DNA of 64,000 nt from Candidatus Moraniibacteriota bacterium (GCA_052034935.1 JBPOIB010000001.1:236173-300172); one strand, 5' to 3'. Positions 38,434 to 55,435 are shown, counted from the first letter of the stretch. The notes: generated from the sequence alone by a model not told the origin. Numbers and translations: made by a program.

Positions 38434-39969
38434 CTACCGTCCCCAACGGTAGACCGTGATGTCACCACGGACATTAGCGTTACTGACGCGTTCCCAGTTT
38501 TTTATGATGTACGGCTCGACATCGGCAGAGATATAGTCCTCATCATTGCCGGAATAGACGAACCAGCCGGACAGATGCTCGGCCTCGATTTTTTGGATGT
38601 CGGCCAGGGAAAGCTTCTTATCGGAGAGTTCGCCGCCGAAATCAAAGACGGGTAGCTTCGCGCCGCTCCAGTAGTAATTACGGAAATTGCGCGCGATGAG
38701 GACATCGCCTTCGGTCTTTTCTTTCTTCACGAAGGTGAAGACTTTGCGATAATTCGGATTGCCGCCCGTCGAGGTCTCGTGATAGGTGTTGTTTTCAGCG
38801 AAGAAATAGGCCAGATTTGGGACAAGAAGGGAAAGACAGAGTCCCACAAAGACAGTGCGACGGATATCCCATGGACCACTTTTCTCTCGGACCCATTCAA
38901 AGAGAGCAACGATACCAGTCGCAGCCAGGATCATCCCGAACGACTGGATAAAATAAATGTACTGCGGGCCGACATTCCGATTCCACATGAAGACCGCCAT
39001 GAAAAGCGGTACGGCATAGGCCAGGGTGAGATAGAGCGCTGCATTCGGTCGAACGAGATTACTCACGAACAACTTCCAGGCACCCAAGATAATGAGAAGC
39101 ACTCCAATGACTGGGGTGGCAAAGTCAGAGAGAGCATGAGTGAGATAGCCGAAGTGGTCTTCAAAGAAGACAAAACCGTTCATGAGGAGCCGGATGACAC
39201 TCGGAACAAAGATCGCGGAAAGGATAAGTACAAGCACCCCGAGCGCGAGCGAAGTCCCGTATTTGTTCCGGATACTCCCCGACTGATGGTATTCCTGAAC
39301 CGTCCGGACGACGAGATAGACACCGAGTGAGATGAAGAGATTGAGCGTCAGCTGATGCACGGAGGCCGAGAGAATACCAAACACGAGGGTGAGAAAAGCG
39401 TACAGCGGATGAATTCCGAAACGCTCCGAGAGAGACCGGAGTGAACGAATCGCACCCTCATACCGGAGCTCATACGCAGCATATACAGCCGTCGCAAAGC
39501 CGAGATACAGCGGAAAAAACATCGCGTACATCCGCAGGCGCCGACTGAAGACAATCGCTGAAACGCTCACCGCACACAGAAGTGCTGCGACGAGGCCGAT
39601 TTCGCGACGACGAGTGAAGATGAGCGCCGACCAATAGACGACCAGGATGGAAAAGAGGCCCCAGAGAGCGCTCACACTTCGTGCCACACCCTCGGTCGGT
39701 GGGAGAAACGAAAAAAGAGCAGCCACCTGCCACTTGTAGACGAAGGCCCGTTCATCGCGAGCATCGTTGACATTCATCTCGGCCGGCTCGCCGTAATTGA
39801 AATCCCAGGCTTTCCAGAGACCAGTCTGATGATAGCCGTACGTCGAATTGATATCGAGGAACTCGTCTGCGACGAAAGAATTCGTCCCGAGACCAGCGAA
39901 GCGAAGTACTGCGCCAAGCGCGAGAAGAACGAATAGGGCACGGAAAACGTTTTTCTGAGAAATTTCCAT
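38434..39969 (-). CDS. ArnT/PMT-like GT-C fold membrane glycosyltransferase (GT39/GT83-like)
   Basis: A DE dyad in the first extracytoplasmic loop (VADEFLD) is followed by about 11 TM segments and a C-terminal soluble domain. The track start is GTG; I used ATG 39969. Confidence 0.55.
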   Translation of the reverse strand: MEISQKNVFRALFVLLALGAVLRFAGLGTNSFVADEFLDINSTYGYHQTGLWKAWDFNYGEPAEMNVNDARDERAFVYKWQVAALFSFLPPTEGVARSVSALWGLFSILVVYWSALIFTRRREIGLVAALLCAVSVSAIVFSRRLRMYAMFFPLYLGFATAVYAAYELRYEGAIRSLRSLSERFGIHPLYAFLTLVFGILSASVHQLTLNLFISLGVYLVVRTVQEYHQSGSIRNKYGTSLALGVLVLILSAIFVPSVIRLLMNGFVFFEDHFGYLTHALSDFATPVIGVLLIILGAWKLFVSNLVRPNAALYLTLAYAVPLFMAVFMWNRNVGPQYIYFIQSFGMILAATGIVALFEWVREKSGPWDIRRTVFVGLCLSLLVPNLAYFFAENNTYHETSTGGNPNYRKVFTFVKKEKTEGDVLIARNFRNYYWSGAKLPVFDFGGELSDKKLSLADIQKIEAEHLSGWFVYSGNDEDYISADVEPYIIKNWERVSNANVRGDITVYRWGR

Positions 39970-39986
39970 AGGCGGGATATAACGAA

Positions 39987-42293
39987 TTACTCTTTCCACT
40001 TGAGACCATCGGAATCATTGAACGTGAGTGTTCTTTCTTCGATGACTGGCGCTTCATTCGGTTGGAGCCGAAGAATATAGCCGAGTGACTTCGATTCCTT
40101 CTCCAGTCCGACGGCCGTATCATCGAATACGAATCCCTGTGAATAGACGATCCGACCGGACTGGTAAGCCTCGCTCTCGACAGGAATCGACAGGCCAGAT
40201 CCGAGGACAAGCGTCGCGCCTGCTTCGACGAAGCTCTGAGCGACCTTCTTGCGTTCTTCGTTCAGGCTCGCGCCAAGCGCGCGGTCCCAGACGAGATATG
40301 TGACAACTACCCGGTCGGATTCTTTCGCTCGCGCAATACTCGCGCGAAGCTTCTCCGGATCAGCCGTCTTCGTCTCACGATACTCAAAAAATGAAAGTTT
40401 TGCATGGAGGAGCGGTTGCATTTCGATCGTCCCACTGACTGAAATCGTGCCGTCGGCTGGTCCGCCGAAAGACTTCACCCCCGCCTGAGAGAGATTACTC
40501 GTGGTCTTTTCAAAACTCTCAGCTTTCTCTCGAGCGAAAGGCAGCGTGCTCCCGAGATGCATGAAGCGGATGTTCGCAGCGCCAAAGACATTGGAAAAGC
40601 GTGTCGGAAAAGAGAGCACGGCAGCCGAATCGGTCGGTGGTACTGGATCAGCGTCCGTGAGAAACGGCACAGCGAGACTCCCAGTAACGAGATCGAAGCG
40701 ACGGAATTCATCTTTCAGCCCCTGAAGAAAAAAATCATCACTCCCCTTCACAACACCTCGGCGAAGCTTCGGGTGATAGGCGAGATCGCCGAGGAAGAGA
40801 ACTTCCCGGACACGGCCCCGGTCTTGAAGCGAGAGCGCCTTCTCTTCTGCCGAAAGAAGACTTGGCGTAGTACGCCGCGCTTCGATAAGCTTCTTCATCC
40901 AGCCGAAGAGGGAAAAACTGCAGGACTGACCAGCAGCGAGCGATGACTCGATTGATGCCTGCGCTTCCCGGATACTCCCGATTGCTTCTTCCGCAAGACG
41001 GCGGTTCGCATCGAACTCGAGAAGGAGGGATTCTTTCTCGATTACTTCAAGAACCGGCGCCATCTCAGCGAGCGCGAGACGGAGTGCCTTTTCGGTGCGC
41101 ACATCATCGCCAGTGAAGAAGCACTGTGTTTTCGAACGGGAAGCGAGCGATGCCTCGGAAGCGCGGAGACGCTCAGTGATTCCGGCGAGAGCAAGCAGCG
41201 ACGGATTGATGTGATCGGCCTCGCGCGAGAGACGCATATCGTCATATTCCTTCCGAGCAGCTGCGGCCTTCGCGGCTCGATCGGCAAGCATCTCGCTGGT
41301 GAGCATCAGCGTCTTCGCCTCAGCCGCTTCTTCGGCCTTCTTCTTCTCTTCCGCTTCGAAGAGAATACGCTCCTCGTCGGTCATGATCTTGCAGCTCTTG
41401 GCAATCTCGCCGTCGCGATTATCAGCGAATGTATTGCCCGAGATCCGAAGCGAATTCAGGAAATAGAACCGCGACGACCCGCCCTGTGGTGCCTTACAGT
41501 CGATGCCCCAGTCGTTCTTACTCAGACGGTTACCTTCGATCTTCACATCGCCGACATCCTTGGCGCCCTTGAAAAACTGTGTCGCGATGCCGCTCGCCCC
41601 GTTGCCTGAGAACGTACTTGATCGAATGACGAGATTCGAATCGCCGAGGACGACTTCGATTCCTGACTCACCGTTGTCACGAAACTCGCTCTTCTCGATC
41701 GTCCCGGACACTTTTTCCCGAATATCGAGCCCCTCTTCGGTATTATCGCGGACTTCAAGTCCTTCGAACTTCACTTCATTCCCTGCCTGCATATAGAGAC
41801 CTTTCCGGGAACCTTCAATCACCGAATCACGAACCGTGATCGTCCCTCGTCCTTCTTCGGCTTTGATACCGACAATCGGGGCGTTTTTCACACGGACTTT
41901 CTCGATCGCGACGTCTGCCCCTTTGAGCGCAAGGATATTCCCACCGCTCGCGAGCGTCACTTTGGACAGCTTGGTGTCGTCCCCCATCTGGACGAGGCCG
42001 GTGATGATGACATCACCCTGGTCGGCGCCCGTGAGCGCTACCCCTTTCGGCAAGGTGAATCCTTCGGAGTACGACCCCTTGGCTACATAGATCGAGTCGC
42101 CGCCTTTGTCCCTCAATTCGTCGAGTGCATCGCTGATCGAGCCGAAAGGGCTTCCTTCCGACCCGTCGCCGCTCTCGCCGTCTTTCACATAATAATCATA
42201 CGAGGCAGCCTCTGCCGTCGGTATCGCTGCCATGAAAAAAACGGCTATTGCCAGAGACTGCCGGAGAAAAGAAGTGGTTTTCGTGAAAAGCAT
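39987..42293 (-). CDS. Secreted fusion protein: right-handed parallel beta-helix repeats plus a coiled-coil region plus a degenerate CapA/PGA_cap (metallophosphatase-fold) domain
   Basis: MLFTKTTSFLRQSLAIAVFFMAAIPTAEA is a signal peptide. Repeated GxxxIxxxxxG beta-helix turns occupy residues about 40-290. An Ala/Glu-rich coiled coil occupies 300-420. The C-terminus aligns to CapA (LFLGDLAY; VVVTYLVWD; EAGATLVLGSGLSIPVESEAYQSGRIVYSQGFVFD), but the His ligands are replaced. Confidence 0.6.
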   Translation of the reverse strand: MLFTKTTSFLRQSLAIAVFFMAAIPTAEAASYDYYVKDGESGDGSEGSPFGSISDALDELRDKGGDSIYVAKGSYSEGFTLPKGVALTGADQGDVIITGLVQMGDDTKLSKVTLASGGNILALKGADVAIEKVRVKNAPIVGIKAEEGRGTITVRDSVIEGSRKGLYMQAGNEVKFEGLEVRDNTEEGLDIREKVSGTIEKSEFRDNGESGIEVVLGDSNLVIRSSTFSGNGASGIATQFFKGAKDVGDVKIEGNRLSKNDWGIDCKAPQGGSSRFYFLNSLRISGNTFADNRDGEIAKSCKIMTDEERILFEAEEKKKAEEAAEAKTLMLTSEMLADRAAKAAAARKEYDDMRLSREADHINPSLLALAGITERLRASEASLASRSKTQCFFTGDDVRTEKALRLALAEMAPVLEVIEKESLLLEFDANRRLAEEAIGSIREAQASIESSLAAGQSCSFSLFGWMKKLIEARRTTPSLLSAEEKALSLQDRGRVREVLFLGDLAYHPKLRRGVVKGSDDFFLQGLKDEFRRFDLVTGSLAVPFLTDADPVPPTDSAAVLSFPTRFSNVFGAANIRFMHLGSTLPFAREKAESFEKTTSNLSQAGVKSFGGPADGTISVSGTIEMQPLLHAKLSFFEYRETKTADPEKLRASIARAKESDRVVVTYLVWDRALGASLNEERKKVAQSFVEAGATLVLGSGLSIPVESEAYQSGRIVYSQGFVFDDTAVGLEKESKSLGYILRLQPNEAPVIEERTLTFNDSDGLKWKE

Positions 42294-42307
42294 GTCTGCG
42301 TTCGTTA

Positions 42308-44074
42308 TTACTCGGCTGATTCGTCGGCATCCTCTTCGTCGAGGAGCGGATCCGAGTTGCGCTCGAAGAATTCGTTCCAGGTATAGCGCGGCGGCGCCGT
42401 CGAGACGCTCGGCTTCAGCTTGGTGAAATCCTGACGTTCGCCCTCAATCACCTCAGGAAGCGGAAAGAGTTCGATTGCGAGCAGCGTTCCGAACGAAGTC
42501 GTCTCGCCAACCGTATAGCTTTTGCGGTACTTCGCGAGACCCGTCTCGAGATTCGATTGCGCTCGGACGATCAGATAATAGACGCCCTGCCGGTAGATAC
42601 CATCGAAACCGAGCACGGCATTGTCGAGCCCGCGTTTGGTGATGAGATACTTCAGCGCCCGCCGGTACTGCGGCTCATTGAACATGTAGATTGGATATCC
42701 AGTCTCGAGCGAGCGTTGCTCCAGAAAATCCACCATCCGTTCCTGCTGCTCGAACGTGACGCGGATCTTTTCCTTCAGGATACGGTCAGGAACATTCTCG
42801 ACCGCTTCCGTGCCGGCCCGGCTCATTTCGCCGAGCCGGGTGGCAAGCGACACGAGGTTGGCGAGAATGAGCGCCGCAATCGTAACACCGAAGACGATTC
42901 CGGCCCATCGGCTGAACCGGCCGCCGGAAATCCGGGAAAGAGCCGCGAAGAAAAGACCGATCAGGATGATGAAGAATGGTCCGGAGAGGAGAAAGAATCG
43001 AGGTGCGGTGCCGTAGGAGAGAGGGAGAAAGAGCGTGAACGTCACTCCCACCCAAATACCGGAAAGGATGAGGAAGTCTCGCTTTTTCCGATCCGTTTCA
43101 CGACAGAGAAGCCATACGAACGCTACAAGCGAAAGGAAAAGAGCGATGACGCCCAGCGTGCCGTACCATTTCCCATCATCGCATTTCTCGGGACAGTTCC
43201 ACTTGAGCCGTCCCTCGATGACGAAGGAGGGAAAATCAGCGCCTTCGAAACCGGTCGTCACAACAATGGCATGAAGCGCGTGTTCGGAGACGTTCCGGAT
43301 CGCCTTCTCCAGAAGCGGATGATCTTCGCGATTCGATTTTTCGGTGATCGCCCCCCAGAATTCCTCCAGGTTCTGGCCGCCGGTCTCGATTTCATTCAGC
43401 ACCATCGGAAAATAGAGAGCGAAGACAATACCGACGGCGGCGACCCACGTCCGGCCCCGGTAGCGCGGACGCTTGACGAGGAGATAGAGGACGAGAGCGG
43501 TCGGGGCCGCCAGAAAGACGAGGAAGTGGAAGTGGGTGGCGAAGGCGAGAGCCGCGACCGCGGCGAGGAACCAGCGGCCCGGGTGACGTTCGCCGGTTTC
43601 CGTCGCTCGGAGCAGCGCATAAAGACCGAGGAGGACGAAGAAGGGTATCAGGTTGGGATTCCAGGCAAAGCGGCCATACATGACGAAAAACTCAGAAACG
43701 GCAAAGATAGCGGTCAGTCCGAGCGACCAGGAGTCACCAAAGAAACGCCGCGCCAAGAGGAAGAATATCGGGATCGAGAGTACGGAGAAAATGAGTACGA
43801 ACGCCGCCATACCCGCCGGACTGCCGCCGAAAACGAGAGCGCTCAGGTATTCCAGGTAATAGAAACCGGGAGCGAGCCGGAGATAGGTGCCGCCCGCCTT
43901 CGGCCCGAGCAGCGGGAGCTCTCCGGGTCCGCCTTCGAGCGCGGAGTCAATGACGATCGCATCGCGCGCCTGATCGAGCTCAAAATGCAGCCAGTCGGAG
44001 AAGTGGTAGGCACGCAGGAAAAACCCGACCGCGACCAGGGCGACGAGAGCGAAGATAACCTGATTCTTTTTCAT
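42308..44074 (-). CDS. ArnT-like GT-C membrane glycosyltransferase (paralog of the N-terminal domain of 48373-50862)
   Basis: DQARDAIVIDSALEGG...LLGPKAGGTYLRLAPGFYYLEYL...RFAWNPN aligns with the ArnT DEaRYaE...P region and with the ORF at 48373. Confidence 0.6.
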   Translation of the reverse strand: MKKNQVIFALVALVAVGFFLRAYHFSDWLHFELDQARDAIVIDSALEGGPGELPLLGPKAGGTYLRLAPGFYYLEYLSALVFGGSPAGMAAFVLIFSVLSIPIFFLLARRFFGDSWSLGLTAIFAVSEFFVMYGRFAWNPNLIPFFVLLGLYALLRATETGERHPGRWFLAAVAALAFATHFHFLVFLAAPTALVLYLLVKRPRYRGRTWVAAVGIVFALYFPMVLNEIETGGQNLEEFWGAITEKSNREDHPLLEKAIRNVSEHALHAIVVTTGFEGADFPSFVIEGRLKWNCPEKCDDGKWYGTLGVIALFLSLVAFVWLLCRETDRKKRDFLILSGIWVGVTFTLFLPLSYGTAPRFFLLSGPFFIILIGLFFAALSRISGGRFSRWAGIVFGVTIAALILANLVSLATRLGEMSRAGTEAVENVPDRILKEKIRVTFEQQERMVDFLEQRSLETGYPIYMFNEPQYRRALKYLITKRGLDNAVLGFDGIYRQGVYYLIVRAQSNLETGLAKYRKSYTVGETTSFGTLLAIELFPLPEVIEGERQDFTKLKPSVSTAPPRYTWNEFFERNSDPLLDEEDADESAE

Positions 44075-44184
44075 ACGGACAAACGCTTTCTTTTTCGGCC
44101 TTTTTTCGCTAGAATAGTCGTGAATTGAGGCGCCGACAATTGATTTATTTTACCCTTTTTCGGGGTTTTCGCACAACACCTCCT

Positions 44185-46446
44185 ATGCCCCTTGTTTCCC
44201 TATCCCGACTCATGGCGGCACTGCTTTCCCTGACCGCCTTTTTCTTTGTCGCTCGCCAGGTTCCGGACCTCGCAGCCTTCCATTTGGGAGATATCAACCG
44301 ACCTTTCTACCTGACTTTTTTTGTCTTGGGTACAGTTCTCATCGCCGTACTCTTGCGCCAAAGCGGACGGAATTTCCGGCGACTCTTTCCACTCGTCCTC
44401 CGCTTTCTCCTCCCGATGGAACTCATCCTCGGGGCTGGACTCTTCCTTTCAACCAATTTTCACCTCCTCGTTTCTCTCAATGTCGGGATCTATTTCCTCA
44501 CCCTCTTCGGTTACTGGGCCATCCGGACCGCCAAACGTGAACAGACTCTCGAAACGGCCGAGGCAGATGTTCCATCCGCGACTGCCGGATGGGTGGAACG
44601 CTATGGGAAAAAAGAGCTCTTTGTCGTTCTTTTCCTCACTGCTCTCTTCTTTTCCTTCGGTGCCTCACATCTCAGCCGTTTCGCCGCGGTCGATGAGCCG
44701 CTCTGGCTCGAAGGCCGGATTCCGAAATTCTGGAAAAATCTCGGCGAGGGCGACCTTCAGAAGACCAATATTAGTGACAAGCCCGGCATCACCGTGACCT
44801 ACGCCACCGGCCCGGGCCTCTTCTTCGTTGATCCGAAGCAGTACATCGATACCCGCTTCGTCTACAGCGAAAAGAATCCTGACGCCGACATCACCGATCT
44901 GTACCTCGCCTTCCGGCTCCCACTCCTCATCGTCATCACTCTTTTCCTTCCCTGTTTCTACTTTTTACTCTCACCGCTCATTGGCCGACGAAGCGCGCTC
45001 TTCTCATACGCCTTCATTGCACTCTCACCCATCCTCATCGGCATGAGTCGCATCATCAATCCGGACTCGCTCCTCTGGCTCTTCGTTCCGCTTTCCTTCA
45101 TCGCCTACCTCAATTTCCTCGAGAAGCGGCGTTTCTCTTTCCTCTTCATCTCCGCGCTTTTCCTCGGACTCGGTCTCTTGACCAAGTACGTGGCGAACTT
45201 CCTCCTCGTCTACTTTTTTGCTTTCATTTTCTTCTCCTATCTCTACAGCCGGCGCCGCGCCCCGATCGCTTTCGCTGAGCACTTCAGGAGAGAATTAGCT
45301 GCTTTCGGCCTCTGGCTCGGCACCGGACTGTCAGTGTTCTACCTCCTCCTCCCAGCCGTCTGGCAAGAGCCACAAGAACTCTTCACCAGCACAATTCTGA
45401 GCGAAGCCTTCGAAAAGGTCGCACCAATTTTCGTTCTTGTTATCCTCCTTATCCTCATCGATCGGCGCTTTTTCCAGTCACGAGCTGCAACCGCCACTAT
45501 GGCTTTTTTTGTTCAGCAAAAGGACCGGCTTGAACGTCTATTTCTCGCGATTTTCACTCTCGCCGTCGGCATCACTCTCCTCAACGGCATACTCGGTATG
45601 CCCTGGCTCGATTTCATGGAAATTGTCGCCTCACCGAAGAGCATTTCTCAGACACAAGGAGCGATTGGGATTTTCCTTGCAAATTTCTTTCCACTCCTCT
45701 TTGGAGTCCCCGTCATCACCCTCGGTTTCCTCCTCATCGCAACGGGAAATGCCGCGCGGCGGACCGCCATAGAGACTCCTGAGCGTATTCTCACCCTCAG
45801 CATCATTCTTTTCATTCTTCTCTACTATCTCGGCTCAACCGTGAACGAAGTCGTCCTCATCAATCGGTATCAGATCGTCCTCTATCCGCTCGCGAGCATC
45901 CTCGCGGGACTTGGTGCAAGTGCCTGCTTTGATTTTCTCCGCGGCCGGTATGCCCGCTTCGCCACGCTTGATGAACGATTCCTTCCTAGTATCCTCATCA
46001 TCATATTACCGCTCGTCATCACCCTCCTCGCGACACCGTTTCCCATGAGTTATACCTCGCCGCTTCTCCCCGACCAGTACACCATCGATATCAAGGACAT
46101 GGGCAACGGAAGCTACGAGGCGGCAGAATACCTGAACAGCCTCCCCGATGCCCGGTCAATGGCCATCTGGACTGATAAGCGCGGCGTCTGTAAATTCTTC
46201 CTGGGCGAGTGCACCGACGGCTTTGACTTCGACAACATACCGACGGACGAGATTGATTACATTGTCATTTCATCAGGGCGTGAGAGCCGGACAGAACGAA
46301 TGATGGCGAACCCGTACGTCCTGAATGACGAGGGTCTCATCCGCTTCGACACCTATTACTCGCGCACGGACGCCGACTTCGAGCTCCTCATCAACGGCCG
46401 GCCCTCACACTACGTCCGTGTCTTTCGCTTCGAACCTGAATCATAG
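44185..46446 (+). CDS. PMT/ArnT-like GT-C membrane glycosyltransferase (tandem paralog A)
   Basis: The loop-1 motif is DEPLWLEG, followed by DKPGITV and RIINPDSLLW. The C-terminal domain is paralogous to that of 46449. The track start is TTG; I used ATG 44185. Confidence 0.6.
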   Translation: MPLVSLSRLMAALLSLTAFFFVARQVPDLAAFHLGDINRPFYLTFFVLGTVLIAVLLRQSGRNFRRLFPLVLRFLLPMELILGAGLFLSTNFHLLVSLNVGIYFLTLFGYWAIRTAKREQTLETAEADVPSATAGWVERYGKKELFVVLFLTALFFSFGASHLSRFAAVDEPLWLEGRIPKFWKNLGEGDLQKTNISDKPGITVTYATGPGLFFVDPKQYIDTRFVYSEKNPDADITDLYLAFRLPLLIVITLFLPCFYFLLSPLIGRRSALFSYAFIALSPILIGMSRIINPDSLLWLFVPLSFIAYLNFLEKRRFSFLFISALFLGLGLLTKYVANFLLVYFFAFIFFSYLYSRRRAPIAFAEHFRRELAAFGLWLGTGLSVFYLLLPAVWQEPQELFTSTILSEAFEKVAPIFVLVILLILIDRRFFQSRAATATMAFFVQQKDRLERLFLAIFTLAVGITLLNGILGMPWLDFMEIVASPKSISQTQGAIGIFLANFFPLLFGVPVITLGFLLIATGNAARRTAIETPERILTLSIILFILLYYLGSTVNEVVLINRYQIVLYPLASILAGLGASACFDFLRGRYARFATLDERFLPSILIIILPLVITLLATPFPMSYTSPLLPDQYTIDIKDMGNGSYEAAEYLNSLPDARSMAIWTDKRGVCKFFLGECTDGFDFDNIPTDEIDYIVISSGRESRTERMMANPYVLNDEGLIRFDTYYSRTDADFELLINGRPSHYVRVFRFEPES

Positions 46447-46448
46447 AC

Positions 46449-48371
46449 ATGGAAACTGAATCACTCACACCACCATCGACTCACTGCCCTCATTCCCGCA
46501 AGGAACAAGTTTTCCTCTTCGGGATGCTTGCACTCATCCTCGGGACTTTCTTCTCCTTCGGCTGGTTTCATCTCGGTAAGTTCGAGACGACCGATGAACA
46601 TCTCTGGAAGTACGACCGCATCGGCCAATACTGGTCAGCCCTCGCGGAGTGGGACCTGGAAAAAACCTACATCAACGATAAGCCTGGTGTCACGGTCGCG
46701 CTCATCTCAGGTTTCGGTCTTCTCACCGAACCACATCCCGAACAAAACGAACTGCGTCCCGAAAATGATAGCCGCTTCGAAGCATACGATACGAAACAGT
46801 CCGAAATCACCAACGTCCGCTTCCGCCTCCCCGTCCTTATTTTCAGTACGATTGCGCTCATTGCCTTCTTTTTCCTCCTGGGCCATGCTTTCGGCAATTG
46901 GCGGATAGCCCTCCTCGGTACACTCATGATTGCGCTCTCACCGGTCCTCGTTGGTATCGCGCAGATTATTAACCCGGACAGCTTTTTCTGGATCTTCGGT
47001 AGTCTCTCGGCCCTCGCCTATTTCGCTCTGCTCCGGACCGGCCGGTTCTCTTTCGTTATTCTTACCGGCATTCTCACCGGCTTCGCACTCCTTTCCAAGT
47101 ACACCGCCTTCATTCTCTTCGCATTCTATGGTTTAGCACTCGGCTTCTCACTCATCAGTGAGCGGGCTGCAGACACCGATTGGCGCAACCTCGGAACGAA
47201 TCTTGTTCGTCTCGCCCTCATCTTTCTCCTCTCGATTGTTGTTTTCGTTCTCTTTCTCCCGGCTGTCTTCGTTCGGCCGGAGTATCTCTTCAAGGGAATC
47301 TCGCAATTTTTCTCCGGGGACGTAGCGCTTCTTCCAACCCTTTTCTTCGCCGGACTCATCATTGTTGCCGGAACTTTCATCATCCGCCGCTTTCCACTCA
47401 CGCCAATACTGAAGTTTTTCCGAACGAAAGAGCGCTTCATCTCCGGCGTGATTCTCGCTGCTTTTCTCGCACTCTTCTTTCTTTCTCTTCTCAATGTCTG
47501 GACGGGACAGAAACTCGTACCAGTTGATGCACTCCGCGATGCTGCCTATTCCAATGAACCGCAGTCATTCAATTTCCGCCCGCTCATCCCGAAAGGTGCG
47601 CCCGAGCTCGGGAAGAATGCCCGACTCATCTTCGTCGAAAGCTACCCGCTCTTTTTCGCTCTGTCGCCGCTCATCCTCGGACTCATCCTCATGGGCTGTA
47701 TGCAGTTCTTCCGCGGAAAACTCTCATCCGAAACGCGTCTTTTTCTCGTAACTCTTATCGCCTTCACCCTCCTCTATTTCGCCTCGACACTCTTTGCTAA
47801 AGTAGTGACCAATGCCCGCTACCTTATCCTCCTCTATCCACTCTTTGCCACCCTTGCCGCACTCGTCCTTTTTGATCTGCTCCGGGAACGCACCATGAAG
47901 CAACCACTCGCTCTCATAGGGGCTGCCTTTTTCGTCTTCGTAATAGGTAGTCTGACACTCTGGCAAGTCCGACCATTCTATTTTAGCTACACGAACAGTC
48001 TCCTCCCCAACCAGTTCACTGCCCATGATTCGTGGGGTCACGGCGCTTACGAAGCAGCTCAGTACCTGAACAGCTTGCCCAATGCTCAAAACATTATCAT
48101 CTGGTCGAATTCCGATACGGTCTGCCGGTTCTTCGAAGGCAAGTGCCTCCGCTCGCGAAAAATTGATCTTTCCGTCGTAACACCCGACTATTTCGTCCTT
48201 TCCAAACGCGGGGTGATCAAGCTAAATAATCGTTTCATCCTCCTCAATAACCCGGACCCGGAAAAAGACAGCGACTACTACTTTAAGCAACTAGAGAAGG
48301 ATCCTCTCTGGAAGCTCGAAATCAACGGCCGGCCAGAGAACTATCTGAAGATTATCCCATTCGAAAAGTAA
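46449..48371 (+). CDS. PMT/ArnT-like GT-C membrane glycosyltransferase (tandem paralog B)
   Basis: The motifs DEHLWKYD, DKPGVTV, QIINPDSFFW and YEAAQYLNSLPNA parallel those of 44185. Confidence 0.6.
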   Translation: METESLTPPSTHCPHSRKEQVFLFGMLALILGTFFSFGWFHLGKFETTDEHLWKYDRIGQYWSALAEWDLEKTYINDKPGVTVALISGFGLLTEPHPEQNELRPENDSRFEAYDTKQSEITNVRFRLPVLIFSTIALIAFFFLLGHAFGNWRIALLGTLMIALSPVLVGIAQIINPDSFFWIFGSLSALAYFALLRTGRFSFVILTGILTGFALLSKYTAFILFAFYGLALGFSLISERAADTDWRNLGTNLVRLALIFLLSIVVFVLFLPAVFVRPEYLFKGISQFFSGDVALLPTLFFAGLIIVAGTFIIRRFPLTPILKFFRTKERFISGVILAAFLALFFLSLLNVWTGQKLVPVDALRDAAYSNEPQSFNFRPLIPKGAPELGKNARLIFVESYPLFFALSPLILGLILMGCMQFFRGKLSSETRLFLVTLIAFTLLYFASTLFAKVVTNARYLILLYPLFATLAALVLFDLLRERTMKQPLALIGAAFFVFVIGSLTLWQVRPFYFSYTNSLLPNQFTAHDSWGHGAYEAAQYLNSLPNAQNIIIWSNSDTVCRFFEGKCLRSRKIDLSVVTPDYFVLSKRGVIKLNNRFILLNNPDPEKDSDYYFKQLEKDPLWKLEINGRPENYLKIIPFEK

Positions 48372-48372
48372 C

Positions 48373-50862
48373 ATGATGTCGAAACTCTCGATGGGTCATA
48401 TTGTAGAGCAGACTCGGAAAAACCGAACGGTCTTAATCCTTGCTGCCATCCTTGTCATCGGCGCCATCTTCAAACTGGCCGACTTTTCTGACCTTGTTCG
48501 CTTCAACGCCGACCAGGTGCGCGACGTACGCATTGTCGAATCCATGGTGAATGAAGGAGAGTTCCCACTCCTCGGCCCGAAAGCCGGTGGCACGACCTTC
48601 AAGCTCGGGCCAGCCTTCTACTATCTCGAATACTTCTCAGCATCCCTCTTCGGTGCAACACCAGAGGGTATCGCGCTCATTTTTCCTCTTCTCAGCATCG
48701 CTTCAGTCGCACTCCTTTTCTTCCTTTTCCGCCGCTTCTTTCCTGTGCCGCTCGCACTTGGGTTGACCCTGCTCTACGCTACTGCGTTCTACTTCACCAA
48801 GTACTCACGCTTCGCCTGGAATCCGAACGCGATTCCGTTCCTCTTTATCGCTTTCCTTATCCTTCTCCTCATTTCGATGGAAACGACCGGAAAACGACTC
48901 CTCATCACTTACGGACTCATCGGACTCACCATGGGTATCGGGATGCAACTCCACACGACACTCCTACTTCTCATGCCGGCTCTTTTCCTCGCGGTGCATA
49001 TCCGGAGTGCCATCGAGAAAAATAACTACCGCTGGCAAGAATTTGCCCTCGCCACCATGCTCGCGCTTTTCTGCCATGTCCCATTCTTCCTTTCGGATCT
49101 CCAGAACGGTGGCGCCAATATCCGGTCATTCTTCGCCGGGATGACCACCAAGACCGAAGAGAACCAATCTCTCGGCAGCAATCTCATCTTGAATGCTCAA
49201 TTTTTTATCCAAGGCACCACGTACGCACTATCTGGAATGGAGCCGAGCAAGGACTGGACTAAGTCAAAAAGTTACGCTTCGTTTCCGAATTTCCGCGAAT
49301 TCCTCCTCGTCATAGGTGGTCTCGGCTTCTTCGTACTTGGAGCCTTCTTCCTGGTCCGTCGGCTTCAGAGCGAACGCAACCAGGAGCGCAAGAATTTCCT
49401 TGAGCTCATGTCCGCGCTCCTCGGATTTTCTTTTCTTCTTTTCCTCCCAATCGCCAACGAGCTCAATCTCCGATTCTTCATCGTCCTTGTGGTATTGCCC
49501 TACCTCTTCCTCGCACTCATTAGTGAAGAGTTCCTTCACCGATGCAAGACACGTCCTCACTTCGCCTACACAGCGGTCACTTTACTCTTCGTTCTCCTTA
49601 TCCTCGCCAATACCCGCATGGTCATCCGGACTTATGATCTCGAAGACTACCAGGTCAAAGACCAAGTCTATGGTGGTCTTTCGCTTGACGAAGGAAAGCG
49701 ACTCGCCACTTTCATTGCCGAAACGGACCAGGCATCAGGAAATAAAAACGGCCGTGTCATCATGTATTCATTCGAGTTCGAACGCTCTCTTGAATACCTT
49801 CTTGAGCCCTATAATCTCCAGATTGACGAAATCGAAGAGGACCAGTCGCGCCTCGCGCTCCGCTACCTCATTACCGAAAATGACAAGACTGAAGCGGCCA
49901 GGAAAAAGCTCGATTGCTGTTACACTGTGCTCCGAGAGAATAAGATTGGCCGCTTCACCATCACCGCTCTCGCGCCGAAAGAGGATCTGGGCGCGTGCAA
50001 AATCGGATTCATCACTGATATCCATGCCACCCGTTCGAAAGAAGCTCCCTTCATCGGTTTCGGCTCCTACGAGCCACTCCTCGCCTTCATGGATACGATG
50101 GAGGAAAAATTCCAGCCTGATATCCTCGTCGAGAACGGCGACTTTATCGACGGTTCGGAGACGAGCAATGCTCGGGCGCTTGAACTCTACCAACGCACGA
50201 AAAGGATCTACGATAGACTCGGCCTCCCCACACTCCATGTCATGGGCAATCATGAGACCAGGAAGGGCGGCATCACCACGGAGCAGTGGCTCACGTTCGC
50301 CGGGCAGGACCGTACCTACTACTCCGAAACCTGCAAGAACACCGAGATCGTCGTGCTTGACGGAAACAATGATGCGCTCCGCGAATCAATGAACGAAGAC
50401 GAGCGTAAAACACTCGAGAGGAACTATTTCATACCGGAAGAACAATTCGCTTGGCTCGAGTCCGCGCTCGCCGCTGCGAAAGACCGCCAGAAAATCGTCT
50501 TCATCCATGAACCGCTCTTTCCTCGCGCCGAAATCACCCAGAATATCAAGCCCGAAAAGGATTTACGGAAAGAGGATAGAGAACGGCTTCAGGCGCTTTT
50601 CAAAGAGCACTCAGTGGCAGCTGTCGTCTCTGGACATGTCGAGTCCCTCTTCCATTCAACTATCGGTGGCACTGGACATTTTATCCTCCCGGGTGTCCGG
50701 AAGAGTGCCAACCTCGCCGTCCAGTGGCTCGGGTCTTTCGCGGAAATCGTCGTCGGAAGCAATGGCGAAGTTGCACTGAATTTTATGTATCGGAAAAACT
50801 GGGAAGAGTCCTACGAATCTGTCTTCATCCCCTCCCGAGCCTACCGGAATCTGGAGAAATAA
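48373..50862 (+). CDS. Fusion: ArnT-like GT-C membrane domain (N-terminal, about 380 aa) plus C-terminal calcineurin-like metallophosphoesterase domain
   Basis: The N-terminus is paralogous to 42308 (ADQVRDVRIVESMVNEGEFPLLGPKAGG; RFAWNPN). The C-terminus has the motifs DIH, GDFIDG, GNHE, FIHEP and SGHVE. Confidence 0.65.
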   Translation: MMSKLSMGHIVEQTRKNRTVLILAAILVIGAIFKLADFSDLVRFNADQVRDVRIVESMVNEGEFPLLGPKAGGTTFKLGPAFYYLEYFSASLFGATPEGIALIFPLLSIASVALLFFLFRRFFPVPLALGLTLLYATAFYFTKYSRFAWNPNAIPFLFIAFLILLLISMETTGKRLLITYGLIGLTMGIGMQLHTTLLLLMPALFLAVHIRSAIEKNNYRWQEFALATMLALFCHVPFFLSDLQNGGANIRSFFAGMTTKTEENQSLGSNLILNAQFFIQGTTYALSGMEPSKDWTKSKSYASFPNFREFLLVIGGLGFFVLGAFFLVRRLQSERNQERKNFLELMSALLGFSFLLFLPIANELNLRFFIVLVVLPYLFLALISEEFLHRCKTRPHFAYTAVTLLFVLLILANTRMVIRTYDLEDYQVKDQVYGGLSLDEGKRLATFIAETDQASGNKNGRVIMYSFEFERSLEYLLEPYNLQIDEIEEDQSRLALRYLITENDKTEAARKKLDCCYTVLRENKIGRFTITALAPKEDLGACKIGFITDIHATRSKEAPFIGFGSYEPLLAFMDTMEEKFQPDILVENGDFIDGSETSNARALELYQRTKRIYDRLGLPTLHVMGNHETRKGGITTEQWLTFAGQDRTYYSETCKNTEIVVLDGNNDALRESMNEDERKTLERNYFIPEEQFAWLESALAAAKDRQKIVFIHEPLFPRAEITQNIKPEKDLRKEDRERLQALFKEHSVAAVVSGHVESLFHSTIGGTGHFILPGVRKSANLAVQWLGSFAEIVVGSNGEVALNFMYRKNWEESYESVFIPSRAYRNLEK

Positions 50863-51796
50863 TTCCTTCGGTTTCCTTCGCTTTGAGATAATGCGGCAGA
50901 GCGAGGAATGAAATGAGCATCTGCAGAAGCCGGGAAAGAAGTGCGGCGGTCACCGCTACTTCCGCTGAAACGCCGACGAGCCCAAAGAAAAAGACATACG
51001 CCCACTCTTTCACGCCGATATTATTGACGGAGATGGGGATATTGGCGACGAGCGTCGCAGAAAAGATTGCGCTGAAAAATACCCAGAACGGGAGATCGGC
51101 GCTGAGCGCCTGGAAAAGTACGTAGTTGCTGAGTCCCACCCCGACCAACATGAAAAAAAGCGACCAGAGAAGTGCTCGGCCGTAGGTTTTCCGGTTCGCG
51201 AATAATTCGAAGCCCTGGAAAACCCCGACCAGCTTCTGTCCAGGGAACAGTGCGGCCAGCGGCTGGAGAGAGCGGTAGAGCTTCTCCGTCCAGAGAAGCG
51301 CCGCGAAGATCATCAGGGCAGCCGAAAGCACGATCGCACCAAGGATAATCAGTACGGGATCGGTCGACAAGACCGCCCACGGGTACGCAAAAAGCCCGAG
51401 ACCCGACAAGAGGAAGAGTCCGAGCAGGCCGGTAATCCGGTCGAAGAAAACGACCGCGAACGCACGAACGCGTTCCCCTGCCTTCGCCATCCAGAAAACC
51501 CGGTAGGTGTCACCGCCGACCGTCGAGGGCAGGAAATTATTGATAAAAGCGCCGGAGAGATAGGCGAAGAATCCATCAGCTACACTGAAGGAGAAACCCT
51601 GAAGCCGGGCAAGATACTGCCATTTCGCCGCCGAAATAATGTTTCCGATAATCTGGATGAGGCAGTAGCTGATCAGGAGCGGCACCGAAGCCTCAGCGAT
51701 GATACCGGCTACCGATGACCAATCGACCGCTTTGATGAGCCAGACGACCAAGGCAATAGTCACGGCAATTTTAAGCGGCAATTTTACATTTTTCAT
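50825..51796 (-). CDS. UPF0104 / lysylphosphatidylglycerol-synthase-TM-like flippase-like membrane protein
   Basis: About 8 TM segments are predicted. The N-terminus KIAVTIALVVWLIKAVDW...FINNFLPSTVGGDTYRVFW matches the family. I set the start at ATG 51796. Confidence 0.6.
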   Translation of the reverse strand: MKNVKLPLKIAVTIALVVWLIKAVDWSSVAGIIAEASVPLLISYCLIQIIGNIISAAKWQYLARLQGFSFSVADGFFAYLSGAFINNFLPSTVGGDTYRVFWMAKAGERVRAFAVVFFDRITGLLGLFLLSGLGLFAYPWAVLSTDPVLIILGAIVLSAALMIFAALLWTEKLYRSLQPLAALFPGQKLVGVFQGFELFANRKTYGRALLWSLFFMLVGVGLSNYVLFQALSADLPFWVFFSAIFSATLVANIPISVNNIGVKEWAYVFFFGLVGVSAEVAVTAALLSRLLQMLISFLALPHYLKAKETEGIISPDSGRLGRG

Positions 51797-51804
51797 ATCC
51801 TCGT

Positions 51805-52965
51805 TTATTTTGTGGAACACTGTTCGAGGACCGACTGAAAATTCTTTGCTACCTTATTCCAACTCTGTGCTTCAGCCCGCTGCCGACTTTCGCTCCCATA
51901 CTTCATTACAAGCTCTCGGTTCTGTAAAAACATCTCAATCGCTTTCGCGAGCGCTTCAGCGGAACGCTCTGGGATAACTATACCATTCACTCCTTCTCGG
52001 ACGAGCTCAGCCGTTCCGCCGGTCGGCGTAGCAATGATAGGGAGACCACACGCGAGCGCTTCAAGCATCGCATTGCTCATCCCCTCGTTCAGCGATGGGA
52101 GGACAAAAAGCGAAGCCTCCTGGTAGTACGGCGCCGTTTCTTCGCGCGGTATCCGTCCGAGGAAAGTCACTTTTTCCTGCAATCCTTTTTCTCGGACAAG
52201 CGTTTCAAGCGCCGGCCGAGCACTTCCATCCCCCATCACTTTCAGATGAATGTCCGGATACCGGGACGCGAGCATCGCGACGGCTTCGATCAGATAATCA
52301 AGCCCCTTCCGCTCGGTCACCCGAGAAGCCCCAGGCGTGATAATGAATTCGTCCTTCGGGCGCCTGCTTTGATCGGAGGTAAAACGACGGATATCGACGC
52401 CGTTTTCAATGATAGTGAACGACTGTTTTGGTGCTGACTCTTTGGCCAGTGCCTCAAGACCGACGCTATTCGGGACTACTGCCGCCGCAAAGCGCCAGAC
52501 GAGACGGATAACCGGACGAATAAAAGGATAGAGCCATGAATACTTGCGACTATACCCTGGGACATCCGATCCACGAAGGGACACAATATACGGTAGGTGG
52601 AATTCCCATTTGAGAAGCAACGCCAAAAATCCACAGGGTACCCCGAAGAAAGCCAGTGTCGTATCAAAAGGCTTGGACTGCTTCTCTATGAGCTTACGCG
52701 AGAACCACCAAGCCTTGAGACTGTATCTGAGAACATCCCCGATCGACTGATGGTGTAGATTATTCTCGTTCTTCCCAATCGGTAAACGATGAATGAAGAC
52801 ATTGCTGCCGAGCGTCGTTTTGACGAACTCAGAACCCACGCTCGACGTCACGAGATGCACCTCGATAGATTCGTCCCGCGCCCATTCTTCGAGAATACAG
52901 GCTGTAGCATTGGCTGCTCCACCGCCGAGGGGCGGATACTCGTAGTTAAGGAAGAGGACTTTCAT
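51805..52965 (-). CDS. Glycosyltransferase family 4
   Basis: The N-terminus MKVLFLNYEYPPLGGGAANA is typical of GT4. NEGMSNAMLEALACGLPIIAT is the C-terminal motif. Confidence 0.75.
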   Translation of the reverse strand: MKVLFLNYEYPPLGGGAANATACILEEWARDESIEVHLVTSSVGSEFVKTTLGSNVFIHRLPIGKNENNLHHQSIGDVLRYSLKAWWFSRKLIEKQSKPFDTTLAFFGVPCGFLALLLKWEFHLPYIVSLRGSDVPGYSRKYSWLYPFIRPVIRLVWRFAAAVVPNSVGLEALAKESAPKQSFTIIENGVDIRRFTSDQSRRPKDEFIITPGASRVTERKGLDYLIEAVAMLASRYPDIHLKVMGDGSARPALETLVREKGLQEKVTFLGRIPREETAPYYQEASLFVLPSLNEGMSNAMLEALACGLPIIATPTGGTAELVREGVNGIVIPERSAEALAKAIEMFLQNRELVMKYGSESRQRAEAQSWNKVAKNFQSVLEQCSTK

Positions 52966-52984: not shown

Positions 52985-54295
52985 CTACACCCCGACCCCG
53001 TAGTACTCGAATCCGGCGGCCTCCGCCTCGGAGCGCTCAAGAACATTGCGCCCATCATAGATGATCACACCTCTCATCTGTTTCTTGATATCTTTATAAT
53101 CTGCTACTCGGAATTCATCCCACTCAGTACAGATAACGAGCGCGTCCACGCCCTTGAGCGCTTCCAGAGCTTTTTTGGTATATGTGAGCCGCTTGTCAGT
53201 CATTACCTTCGCGGCTGTTTCCATCGCGACCGGATCAAAAGCCCGGACCTTTGCCCCTGCCTCGAGCAGCGCGCGGATATTCATGAGTGCGGCCGCCTCG
53301 CGGACATCGTCCGTTCGTGGCTTAAATGCGAGCCCCCAGACGGCAACGGTTTTGTCCTTCATCTTTTCGCCCCAGAGCTCGCGCAGCTTTGCAAAGGGCC
53401 GGAGACGTTGGCTCGTATTCACCTCATCCACCATCTCGAGTAGTTGGAAATGCGACTGATATTCATGTCCGGTCTTGATGAATGCTTTCACATCTTTTGG
53501 GAAGCATGAGCCACCATAGCCGATTCCCGCATAGAGAAAACGTGAGCCGATCCGATTATCATAGCCGAGCCCCTTGGCCACTTCTTTTACGTTGCCGCCG
53601 GCCGCCTCGCAGAAATTCGCCACCTCATTGATGAAAGTAATCTTGGTCGCGAGGAACGCATTCGCTGCGTACTTAATGATTTCTGCACTCCGGACATCGG
53701 TCAGCATGAGCGGCCGACCGCTCCGGACGATCGGACGATACACCTGTTCCATAATCTTCTTCGCCTTGACTGATGCGGCTCCGACGACAACTCGGTCCGG
53801 ATTGAGGAAATCCTTCACTGCCGCTCCCTCGCGGAGAAATTCCGGATTGGAGACGACTTCGAACGGATGCTTGCCTTTGGACGCTTCTTTGATAACCCGA
53901 GTGACTTTCTCCGCCGTCCCGACTGGTACGGTCGACTTATCGACGAAGATCTTGTAGCTATTCAAATGTTTACCAAAGGCTTCCGCCGCCGAGAAAACAT
54001 ACTTCAGATTCGCCTCGCCCGTCACCGGGTCCTCTGGAGTACCGACCGCCATAAATACAACCTCCGATTCTTGGATCGCCTCCTTCAGGTCAGTCGTAAA
54101 CGAGAGCCGGCCCTCCTTTACATTTCGCTCGACAACCTCCTCGAGGCCAATTTCGTAGATTGGGATGATCCCTTTCTTCAGCTTGGCAATCTTTTCTTTG
54201 TCGACATCGGCGCAAATCACCTCATGCCCGATTTCCGCCATGCACGCCCCCGACACTAGACCGACATACCCCGTCCCCAGAAAGGAAAGTTTCAT
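52985..54295 (-). CDS. ugd: UDP-glucose 6-dehydrogenase
   Basis: MKLSFLGTGYVGLVSG is the Rossmann motif. GGSCFPKD carries the catalytic Cys. I set the start at ATG 54295 because the track start is TTG. Confidence 0.85.
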   Translation of the reverse strand: MKLSFLGTGYVGLVSGACMAEIGHEVICADVDKEKIAKLKKGIIPIYEIGLEEVVERNVKEGRLSFTTDLKEAIQESEVVFMAVGTPEDPVTGEANLKYVFSAAEAFGKHLNSYKIFVDKSTVPVGTAEKVTRVIKEASKGKHPFEVVSNPEFLREGAAVKDFLNPDRVVVGAASVKAKKIMEQVYRPIVRSGRPLMLTDVRSAEIIKYAANAFLATKITFINEVANFCEAAGGNVKEVAKGLGYDNRIGSRFLYAGIGYGGSCFPKDVKAFIKTGHEYQSHFQLLEMVDEVNTSQRLRPFAKLRELWGEKMKDKTVAVWGLAFKPRTDDVREAAALMNIRALLEAGAKVRAFDPVAMETAAKVMTDKRLTYTKKALEALKGVDALVICTEWDEFRVADYKDIKKQMRGVIIYDGRNVLERSEAEAAGFEYYGVGV

Positions 54296-54364
54296 ACACA
54301 AATCAATTATCAGTAATCAAATCCGCTGGCACGATAAAAACCTTCGCAGTCAAGAAATCCCGTC

Positions 54365-55389: not shown

Positions 55390-55418
55390 TTGACAAAGAA
55401 TGTTATTACATGTAGTAT
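55390..55418 (+). promoter_or_regulatory. Sigma70-like promoter TTGACA-N17-TGtAGTAT
   Basis: TTGACA at 55390-55395, a 17-nt spacer, and TAGTAT at 55413-55418 preceded by TG. It lies 18 nt before ATG 55436. Confidence 0.55.
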
Positions 55419-55435
55419 ATGACTTAATAAAACCT

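Follow-up and report, generated by a model that had tools for sequence, protein, structure and literature searches.

Five GT-C glycosyltransferase genes in two stable, apparently divergent operons outline a probable envelope glycan pathway in a Candidatus Moraniibacteriota bacterium

Introduction

We analysed a stretch of 64,000 nucleotides from Candidatus Moraniibacteriota bacterium (GCA_052034935.1 JBPOIB010000001.1:236173-300172, hereafter the window), in which four genes between positions 42308 and 50862, here called A, B, C and D, encode membrane glycosyltransferases (GTs) of the GT-C class. Together with a fifth, more distant GT-C gene (E) and a gene for a beta-helix protein (BH-PGAcap, or BH), these genes most plausibly form the extracytoplasmic arm of an envelope glycan pathway, a reading to which we give a probability of roughly 80%. 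In this pathway two stable divergent operons, derived from ancient duplications, would supply five GT-C enzymes and an exported metallophosphoesterase (MPE). The paralogy of the genes, the age of the duplications, the synteny, the fold, the motifs, the purifying selection and the absence of recombination substrates are established. A first-pass annotation of this DNA had described the four genes as an inverted GT-C pair flanking a tandem pair, and took this pattern of symmetric duplication as the mark of a glycan variation locus that could be phase- or recombination-variable. The paralogy is confirmed below, and the locus proves to be one of fixed order.

The envelopes of bacteria of the Candidate Phyla Radiation (CPR) are almost uncharacterised; CPR bacteria do not grow in isolation, and it is through their surfaces that they attach to host cells. 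The pathway logic discussed here is that of the three-component systems, which consist of a membrane-linked GT-A enzyme that makes a C55-P-sugar, a flippase, and a GT-C enzyme with an extracellular acidic motif (PMC8035078).

Results

Layout of the GT-C block

The genes of the block are listed below, with lengths in amino acids (aa) and numbers of transmembrane (TM) segments where these are predicted.

Gene A, 42308-44074, minus strand: 588 aa, GT-C of the A/D subfamily, leading gene of the apparent minus-strand operon.
Gene B, 44185-46446, plus strand: 753 aa, GT-C of the B/C subfamily, with an alternative TTG start at 44125.
Gene C, 46449-48371, plus strand: 640 aa, GT-C of the B/C subfamily.
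Gene D, 48373-50862, plus strand: 829 aa, in two parts.
D, N-terminal part, 48373-49992, plus strand: residues 1-540, GT-C module of the A/D subfamily, 11 TM segments and an alpha/beta domain.
D, C-terminal part, 49993-50862, plus strand: residues 541-829, metallophosphoesterase domain.
Gene E, 38434-39999, minus strand: 521 aa, about 9 or more TM segments, predicted fifth and divergent GT-C, final gene of the apparent minus-strand operon.
BH-PGAcap, 39987-42293, minus strand: 768 aa, between A and E, with Pfam matches to Beta_helix (2.9e-27) and PGA_cap (3.7e-14).
Divergent intergenic region between A and B, 44075-44184, no strand: 110 nt.

The junctions within each strand are tight. A and BH are separated by 14 nt and BH and E overlap by 13 nt on the minus strand, while on the plus strand the gaps are 2 nt between B and C and 1 nt between C and D. 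This layout points to two divergent operons, A-BH-E (minus) and B-C-D (plus), arranged around a shared and conserved promoter region. The inverted appearance of A and D thus follows from divergent transcription and represents a stable arrangement, not a switch. With E included the block also loses the symmetry that had been proposed for it.

Two pairs of paralogs and a fifth GT-C

The four open reading frames (ORFs) lie at the coordinates first reported for them, and all ten peptides quoted in support of their relationship are present where expected. A and D are 28% identical over 560 aa by BLASTP (E-value 9e-38). Their identity is 45% in the first ~160 aa, the part for which paralogy had been claimed, and 24% across the remainder, so the homology spans the whole GT-C unit of ~540 aa and not the N-terminus alone. 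The tandem pair B and C is 33% identical over 663 aa (E-value 1e-75). The similarity within each pair greatly exceeds the background set by unrelated GT-C proteins, the level at which the first-pass annotation would have had its paralogy refuted. BLASTP detected nothing between the A/D and B/C subfamilies, which are linked by profile-profile comparison (hhalign probability 93.5% for D with C and 76% for A with C).

All four proteins pass the Pfam gathering threshold for PMT_2 (PF13231) and/or PMT (PF02366), which are set at 26.1 and 22.7 bits respectively. E-values for PMT_2 are 1.1e-10 for A, 9.7e-12 for B and 2.3e-9 for D, and those for PMT are 8e-7 for B and 1.4e-9 for C; the bit scores are 42.4 for A, 45.8 for B, 33.2 for C (38.3 with PMT) and 38.1 for D. 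The alignment of B to C starts at residue 122 of B, and the preceding N-terminal extension of ~120 aa with four TM segments is missing in C. This extension (44185-44560, residues 1 to ~125) is conserved in orthologs, with Y42 and P77 invariant. We considered whether it might be a fused GtrA flippase and found no support, as eight orthologs gave no Pfam match at E-values up to 10. The extension had been overlooked in the first-pass annotation, as had gene E, the phosphoesterase domain of D and the lack of nucleotide similarity between the paralogs.

E itself has no Pfam or NCBIfam match, and a sequence-level search of the PDB returned no match for the E family or for the GT-C part of D. Comparison of the E and D families by hhalign gives a probability of 92% (E-value 6e-7) over the N-terminal ~200 aa, and PMT_2 is matched by 6 of 29 E orthologs (best E-value 1.4e-5). 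The first loop of E holds an invariant D45-E46-x-x-D49 motif, and E adjoins A in ~35 loci, making this the most constantly adjacent pair. By these profile and motif comparisons E is a divergent fifth GT-C.

Fold, catalytic motifs and predicted topology

AlphaFold (AF2) models built from deep alignments have a mean confidence (pLDDT) of 92.7 and a pTM of 0.82 for D, and of 88.8 and 0.91 for C. A Foldseek search of the PDB with the membrane module of D returned ArnT (5F15, E-value 3.9e-8), AglB, STT3 and ALG12; the likeness to ArnT is one of fold, at 12-14% sequence identity. The model of C matched STT3, AglB, PglB, Pmt4, ArnT and ALG9/12, and more weakly Emb, AftA and AftD. For both models the matches to GT-C class A had a Foldseek probability of 1.00. 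A and B are tied to the modelled folds by hhalign probabilities of 100% to D and C respectively. On the strength of these models, A, B, C and D are assigned to class A (ArnT/PMT/STT3-like) of the GT-C superfamily.

The residues expected of active enzymes are preserved. In the A/D family the first-loop D-Q-x-R-D motif (D47, Q48, R50 and D51), which is kept in A, is invariant across 96 sequences, as are W149, N150, N152 and H194. A 'GPKAGGT' stretch at 68-74 is invariant at six of its seven positions and nearly so at K70. Invariant features of C are D49-E50, NDKPG, NPD, C559 and C566, and those of B are D170-E171, DKPG at 198-201, NPD at 292-294, C669 and C676. Since all five GT-Cs carry invariant acidic first-loop motifs, none of them looks like a pseudo-enzyme.

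From the modelled helices and the positive-inside rule, D is predicted to have 11 TM helices and C 13, each with the N-terminus inside and the C-terminus outside; every cytoplasmic loop of D is rich in K/R. The catalytic loops and the C-terminal domains would therefore face outward, a location consistent with the invariant cysteine pair that B and C each have in the C-terminal domain.

BH is composed of a right-handed beta-helix (NosD/Pel9A-like) and a PGA_cap domain, which is CapA-like and itself belongs to the metallophosphatase superfamily. On reading of the translation its N-terminus is hydrophobic and resembles a signal peptide, and a crude TM scan found 0 segments. Roughly one in two syntenic loci keeps BH at this position.

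A metallophosphoesterase fused to D

The C-terminal part of D matches Metallophos (PF00149) over residues 543-756 with an E-value of 1.3e-17 and 65.3 bits, against a cutoff of 21.5. Its Foldseek matches include Rv0805 (2.2e-9), GpdQ and purple acid phosphatase. All five MPE signature motifs are kept, and the residues invariant in 12 fusion proteins are D549, H551, G589-D590, G625-N626-H627, H712, G754-H755 and E757; motif V reads GHxE, with the invariant E757 in place of the second histidine of GHxH. As the domain follows an odd number of TM helices (11) with K/R-rich cytoplasmic loops, it is predicted to be extracytoplasmic.

The association of MPE and GT-C recurs in related loci. The domain is fused to D in nine loci (fusions are present in the window and in L002-L007, L016 and L020) and to a C-type GT-C in L059 (L059:2843-5581). 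In 13 further cases a stand-alone MPE of 280-360 aa adjoins GT-C genes (for example L004:9833-10834, L038:2432-3496 and L064:13369-14307), and by a crude scan of hydropathy 12 of these 13 have a single N-terminal hydrophobic anchor. When 1.84 billion representatives were searched exhaustively, only 29 close relatives came up at E-values of 1e-30 or lower, which is a narrow clade. Around 11 of them are fusions of ~800-830 aa and most of the others are stand-alone proteins of ~320-350 aa with a leader. A Rosetta-stone pattern of this kind, fused in some loci and adjacent in others, suggests that the two activities are functionally coupled outside the membrane. We found no earlier description of a fusion between a GT-C and a metallophosphoesterase in the searchable literature.

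The probable role of the MPE is to process a phosphodiester or diphosphate linkage, either in the substrate that the GT-C acts on or in the lipid carrier. One can go further and suppose that D is an undescribed bifunctional extracytoplasmic enzyme, in which the transfer of a sugar from a lipid-phosphate donor is coupled to the cleaving or remodelling, outside the membrane, of a bond of the phosphodiester or diphosphate type; we offer this tentatively and consider it unlikely as stated. Under such a scheme the domain might act on a wall polymer and trim its sugar-phosphate or glycerol-phosphate substituents, or it might free polyprenyl phosphate from lipid-linked intermediates in the outer leaflet and so act as an external counterpart of UpsH. 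UpsH (YpbG) is an MPE that cleaves wall polymers linked to undecaprenyl diphosphate and faces the cytoplasm (PMC11898649). UpsH and LpxH, the latter among the fold matches, share the calcineurin-like fold with D and are precedents for MPEs that act on lipid-linked diphosphates. They differ from D in facing the cytoplasm, whereas the MPE of D is predicted to be extracytoplasmic and is fused to a GT-C; the domain of D is closest to Rv0805, GpdQ and purple acid phosphatase, not to LpxH, and its motif V is GHxE and not GHxH. If the bifunctional scheme were true, the D fusion and a PF03706 flippase for lipid-phosphate sugars would outline an envelope glycosylation pathway specific to CPR bacteria.

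Synteny, age of the duplications and selection

A scan of species-representative genomes yielded 77 related loci. Homologs that carry organism names belong to Candidatus Moranbacteria/Moraniibacteriota, and a metagenome contig includes an identical copy. Many related contigs from metagenome-assembled genomes (L002-L077) are titled 'uncultured Bdellovibrionales bacterium' yet carry the Moraniibacteriota-type block at 35-60% identity, and these titles appear to be taxonomic mislabels.

The full gene order was found in 14 complete loci, which come from other Moraniibacteriota species, and in partial contigs. It runs from E through BH (where present) to A on the minus strand, then through B, C and D on the plus strand, and then through a flippase-like gene (LPGs), a GT4 gene, Ugd and a membrane-anchored GT2 gene (GT2tm) on the minus strand. 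In every complete locus the score of each gene with its positional counterpart is 2-4 times that with its paralog; for genes at the A position, for instance, the ranges are 380-632 bits with A and 122-169 bits with D. Three closer relatives (89%, 78% and 70% nucleotide identity) have the same order and orientation. A neighbour-joining tree places A apart from D, and B apart from C, in clades made up of one and the same set of genomes, which means that both duplications predate the divergence of these species.

Ratios of non-synonymous to synonymous substitution (dN/dS, by NG86 against the three relatives) are 0.04-0.17 for all GT-C genes and 0.04-0.09 for A, and rule out diversifying selection. 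The paralogs are therefore ancient, fixed and under strong purifying selection. An ORF of 523 aa lies antisense to A (42557-44128, plus strand), with a low-complexity translation rich in R, E and G. Purifying selection in the frame of A indicates that this ORF is spurious.

More distant loci vary in content. A reduced form with the order Wzx, E, A, then B with or without C, then LPGs, and without D, occurs in many lineages, and other lineages have 3-6 tandem copies of the A family with 1-3 of the B family. The number of GT-Cs per locus ranges from 1 to 7. The comparison of copy number that had been proposed thus does reveal variation between species, of a kind confined to deep time. The same holds for the suggestion of diversified specificity: the paralogs persist as separate orthologous lineages with intact motifs under purifying selection, so that divergence of specificity over the long term is the most reasonable reading, and the one variation seen between strains is allelic.

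These data also bear on whether the paralogs are separate enzymes or subunits of one, that is, obligate hetero-oligomers such as B with C or A with E, in the manner of Pmt1-Pmt2 or EmbA-EmbB. The adjacency of B and C and of A and E is highly conserved, and heterodimers of PMT and Emb paralogs are established (PDB 6P25 and 7BVF are among the fold matches). Against this, many loci hold B without C or A without D, and each paralog keeps a full set of catalytic motifs. We regard obligate hetero-oligomers as clearly unlikely and take the paralogs to be enzymes in their own right.

No substrate for switching

In a glycan variation locus, inversion, gene conversion or phase switching would act on the A/D and B/C pairs, and different cells or strains would express different glycosyltransferase specificities. 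Such a locus should have a simple-sequence tract in or upstream of a gene, inverted repeats with a site-specific recombinase, or paralogs similar enough for gene conversion. The best match between paralogs at the DNA level (blastn, word size 7) was 36 nt at 80%. Searched for repeats, the interval 41.5-51.5 kb had none at breakpoints or flanks; its matches were at chance level apart from the best inverted repeat, 51 nt at 73%, on conserved FAWNPN codons. TRF reported no relevant simple-sequence tracts and none of useful length. Annotated ORFs of 200 aa or longer, across all 64 kb of the window, included no recombinase or invertase. Order and orientation were identical in all 17 relatives compared, at protein identities of 35-96%.

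Several observations do lend some colour to a variable locus. The paralogs are indeed inverted and tandem, the number of GT-Cs differs between species, and A-like and D-like genes stand in tandem, not inverted, in some distant lineages. Two strains also differ in a mosaic fashion. Between the window and the closest relative, L079, synonymous divergence (dS) varies ~7-fold along 10 kb, from 0.135 in C through 0.33 in B, 0.51 in D and 0.99 in BH to 1.03 in A. This mosaic (39987-51073) suggests allelic exchange between strains, and not recombination of the paralogs with each other. Exchange of this kind is common at surface-glycan loci.

Lastly, L079 carries 1-nt indels in short homopolymer runs (T6 to T7 and C3 to C4/5) that split D into 296 and 510 aa and truncate A, with a further 1-nt homopolymer indel in the flippase-like gene. 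They lie at about 8607, 10095, 10409 and 1949 of this contig from the Joint Genome Institute (JGI), equivalent to window positions 49201, 50688, 51001 and 42546. Tracts as short as T6 and C3, and the involvement of several genes of which one is not a GT-C, are typical of assembly error or decay, and the indels probably arose from errors in assembly or sequencing, or from gene decay, not from phase variation. Taken with the fixed arrangement and the low dN/dS, these results largely refute a glycan variation locus, which we consider very improbable. The geometry of paralogs alone is not a sign of phase or recombinational variation.

The divergent intergenic region

The 110-nt region between A and B is 96% identical in nucleotides between the window and L079, where the flanking coding sequence is 83-91% identical (83% for A). 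Long invariant blocks persist in L080 and L081, at coding dS values above 1 (above 1.4 in L081). It has two invariant -10-like boxes, of which TAGAAT (plus strand, 44110-44115) faces B and TAAAAT (minus strand, 44147-44152) faces A, and similar boxes are also present in L018 and L019. By sequence conservation the region probably comprises back-to-back, overlapping divergent promoters, possibly with a regulator site. It also contains a CAATTG palindrome. A scan of 36-58 kb with Rfam for riboswitches or small RNAs gave no match in this region.

Donor synthesis, flippases and the proposed pathway

The genes that flank the block are as follows.

LPGs, 50825-51820, minus strand: LPG_synthase_TM / flippase-like protein with 7-8 TM segments, PF03706 (1.1e-38).
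GT4a, 51805-52965, minus strand: cytoplasmic GT4 glycosyltransferase, Glycos_transf_1 (3.3e-41), syntenic in most loci.
Ugd, 52985-54301, minus strand: UDP-glucose 6-dehydrogenase with all three UDPG_MGDP_dh domains, TuaD-like (532 bits).
GT2tm, 54365-55309, minus strand: GT2 with two C-terminal TM helices (230, 266), Glycos_transf_2 (7.6e-35).
Epim, 55400-56371, plus strand: GalE-like nucleotide-sugar 4-epimerase or dehydratase of the SDR (short-chain dehydrogenase/reductase) type, Epimerase (3e-64).
GT2b, 56514-57236, plus strand: GT2 whose best NCBIfam match is PpgS (134 bits, full length).
DUF2304 protein, 57251-57595, plus strand: small membrane protein of 114 aa, PF10066.
Wzx, 36580-38073, plus strand: Wzx/MOP-family flippase, Polysacc_synt (8e-25), flanking the GT-C block beside E.
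Third GT2, 25503-26456, plus strand: GT2 with two C-terminal TM helices.

The donor synthases lie within 4-8 kb of the GT-Cs and are syntenic in many loci. By sequence and architecture GT2tm would be a membrane-linked polyprenyl-phosphate sugar synthase of the ArnC/PgfS/GtrB type; at 62-87% identity between loci, it is conserved more highly than any other gene of the block. GT2b and the DUF2304 protein resemble a second synthase pair for lipid-phosphate sugars, of the PpgS/Rv3632 or GacI/GacJ type. GacJ is a DUF2304 protein, and the PpgS/Rv3632 and GacI/GacJ pairs make lipid-phosphate N-acetylhexosamine for GT-C enzymes (10.1101/180810). The locus thus probably makes two or three different lipid-phosphate sugars. 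LPGs, which converges on D with an overlap of 38 nt, adjoins the GT-C block in ~46 loci and matches the TIGR00374 'flippase-like domain' above cutoff (56 bits), is a candidate flippase for such sugars. Wzx adjoins E or A in ~40 loci.

The wider window encodes a Wzy-like protein, an LCP ligase and several GT4 enzymes as well as Wzx, and is on this account a cell-wall glycopolymer locus in which a wall-polymer acceptor is plausible. A cell-wall glycan outside the membrane is the most likely target of the GT-Cs. In the pathway that we propose, cytoplasmic Ugd and the GalE-like epimerase would make UDP-sugars, GT2tm and the GT2b/DUF2304 pair would load sugars onto polyprenyl phosphate, and the LPG_synthase_TM protein or the adjacent Wzx would flip the lipid-phosphate sugars outward. 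A, D, B, C and E would then each move a sugar from its lipid-phosphate donor to a different acceptor position on a glycopolymer or protein outside the membrane, with catalysis through the acidic motif in the first outward loop.

Discussion

Weighing the proposed pathway

For the acceptor there is another reading. The GT-Cs might be protein O-glycosyltransferases (like PMT/Pmt, or PgfM1/PgtC2) that act on Ser/Thr-rich exported, pilus or S-layer proteins, with the same mechanism and donors as proposed above and with the acceptor class alone being different. Pfam assigns the proteins to PMT and PMT_2, the PMT-type D-E pair stands in the first loop of B, C and E, C matches Pmt4 and STT3/PglB, all of which modify proteins, and GT2tm resembles PgfS and lies beside an epimerase as in the pgf operon. 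Set against these points, the genes around the block (Wzx, Wzy-like, LCP and GT4) are those of a glycopolymer locus, no gene for a Ser/Thr-rich acceptor was noted nearby, the top GT-C match of D is ArnT, and PMT_2 members act on lipids and polysaccharides too (PMC8035078). On balance we find protein acceptors unlikely, though a live alternative, and retain the cell-wall glycan as the preferred target.

Several points weigh against the pathway as a whole. C and D are missing from many related loci, so that the five enzymes are not an obligate set. GT2tm matches ArnC, its best family, at 190 bits and PgfS at 150 bits over its full length, in each case below the equivalog cutoff, as is the match of Epim to GalE (208 bits against 262), and no GtrA-type flippase was found in the locus. 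The acceptor could be a polysaccharide, a protein or a lipid. Topology is deduced from the positive-inside rule and homology, and co-transcription from gene spacing alone; a generic scan for sigma-70 promoters and terminators found promoter-like sites at chance level and left the two boxes between A and B unflagged. More generally, the topology, the donors, the flippase, the acceptor and the role of the phosphoesterase are what we infer.

A label of 'mannosyltransferase' (GT39, PMT/Pmt proper) does not suit the enzymes. Pfam finds no MIR domain in them, GT2tm is nearer to ArnC/PgfS than to dolichyl-P-hexose synthases, and no gene of the GDP-mannose pathway was seen in the window.

Comparison with known systems

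A close parallel in logic is provided by the three-component systems GtrA/B/C, CsbB-GtcA-YfhO, GacI/J/K/L and CsdAB/CD/EF-CflA, which like the present locus combine a GT2 and a GT-C with an acidic loop, together with a flippase, for which the present locus offers candidates (PMC8035078). The Gac system shares the pairing of a GT2 with a DUF2304 protein, and these systems too lie inside a cell-wall polysaccharide locus. The Csd system of L. lactis illustrates that several GT-Cs can share one flippase. The differences are that the known systems have one GT-C each, whereas five are clustered here in two divergent operons; that the candidate flippases are a PF03706 (MprF-TM-like) protein and Wzx and not a GtrA-type protein; and that one GT-C is fused to a metallophosphoesterase and the host is a CPR bacterium.

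A second parallel concerns the use of several GT-C paralogs. In the transfer of galacturonic acid by the Rgt enzymes, RgtE is the donor synthase and RgtA-D/F are ArnT-like GT-C paralogs, of which RgtA-C each serve their own acceptor position. ArnT/ArnC together with the Rhizobium Rgt enzymes resemble the present locus in Ugd, a 4-epimerase-like SDR, an ArnC-like GT2 and several GT-C paralogs of the PMT_2 type (PMC7663294). Unlike in the ArnT/ArnC pathway, there are no equivalents of ArnA, ArnB or ArnD adjacent to the block. To our knowledge Patescibacteria lack lipopolysaccharide, and if so the acceptor cannot be lipid A or the lipopolysaccharide core.

The Pgf system of Streptococcus mutans (PgfS, PgfE, PgfM1 and PgfM2) likewise brings together a GT2, an epimerase and two GT-C paralogs with extracellular catalytic motifs (10.1101/2024.05.05.592596). 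It is unlike the present locus in that PgfM1 and PgfM2 belong to the YfhO family and not to PMT_2, and that Pgf targets Ser/Thr-rich proteins. Mycobacterial sets such as embC-embA-embB, AftA-D, MptA-C and PpgS/Rv3632 with Rv3779 share with the present locus tandem ancient GT-C paralogs, a PpgS/DUF2304-type synthase and C-terminal accessory domains that are extracytoplasmic (in the present locus by prediction), and in them paralogs for distinct acceptors build one envelope glycan from polyprenyl-phosphate sugars. Their families (GT53, GT87 and others) are distinct from the PMT_2-like proteins found here, and the C-terminal domains of Emb proteins are carbohydrate-binding modules and not phosphoesterases. 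Paralog sets that act sequentially or in parallel include EmbA/B/C-Aft, RgtA-D, PgfM1/M2 and ALG3/9/12.

By analogy with these systems, the locus may be viewed as a glycosylation module with multiple GT-Cs that use lipid-phosphate sugars in a CPR bacterium, with a known pathway logic in a new arrangement. We found no earlier description in the literature of ArnT-type glycosylation in CPR bacteria. The locus predicts extensive extracytoplasmic glycan decoration in Moranbacteria and offers a concrete conserved set of genes for it: two or three predicted synthases of lipid-phosphate sugars, a candidate flippase, five GT-Cs and a putatively exported phosphoesterase. The GT-C-phosphoesterase fusion in particular is a compact and testable lead for a new enzyme coupling.

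Other genes in the window

A gene for an RtcB RNA ligase (34449-35954, plus strand) lies between a GT4 gene (GT4c) and Wzx, and the order Wzx-RtcB-GT4c recurs in ~40 related loci; it is a stable odd neighbour with no obvious link to glycan synthesis. Two further membrane proteins, G14tm (28658-30571, plus strand, 637 aa, ~14 TM segments) and F8tm (59703-61367, plus strand, 554 aa, ~8 TM segments), were considered as additional GT-Cs and rejected, as their hhalign probabilities were at most 2.2%. Neither has a Pfam or NCBIfam match. Synteny between G14tm and GT4 genes extends to at least 15 loci, and both proteins could be polymerases or other envelope enzymes.

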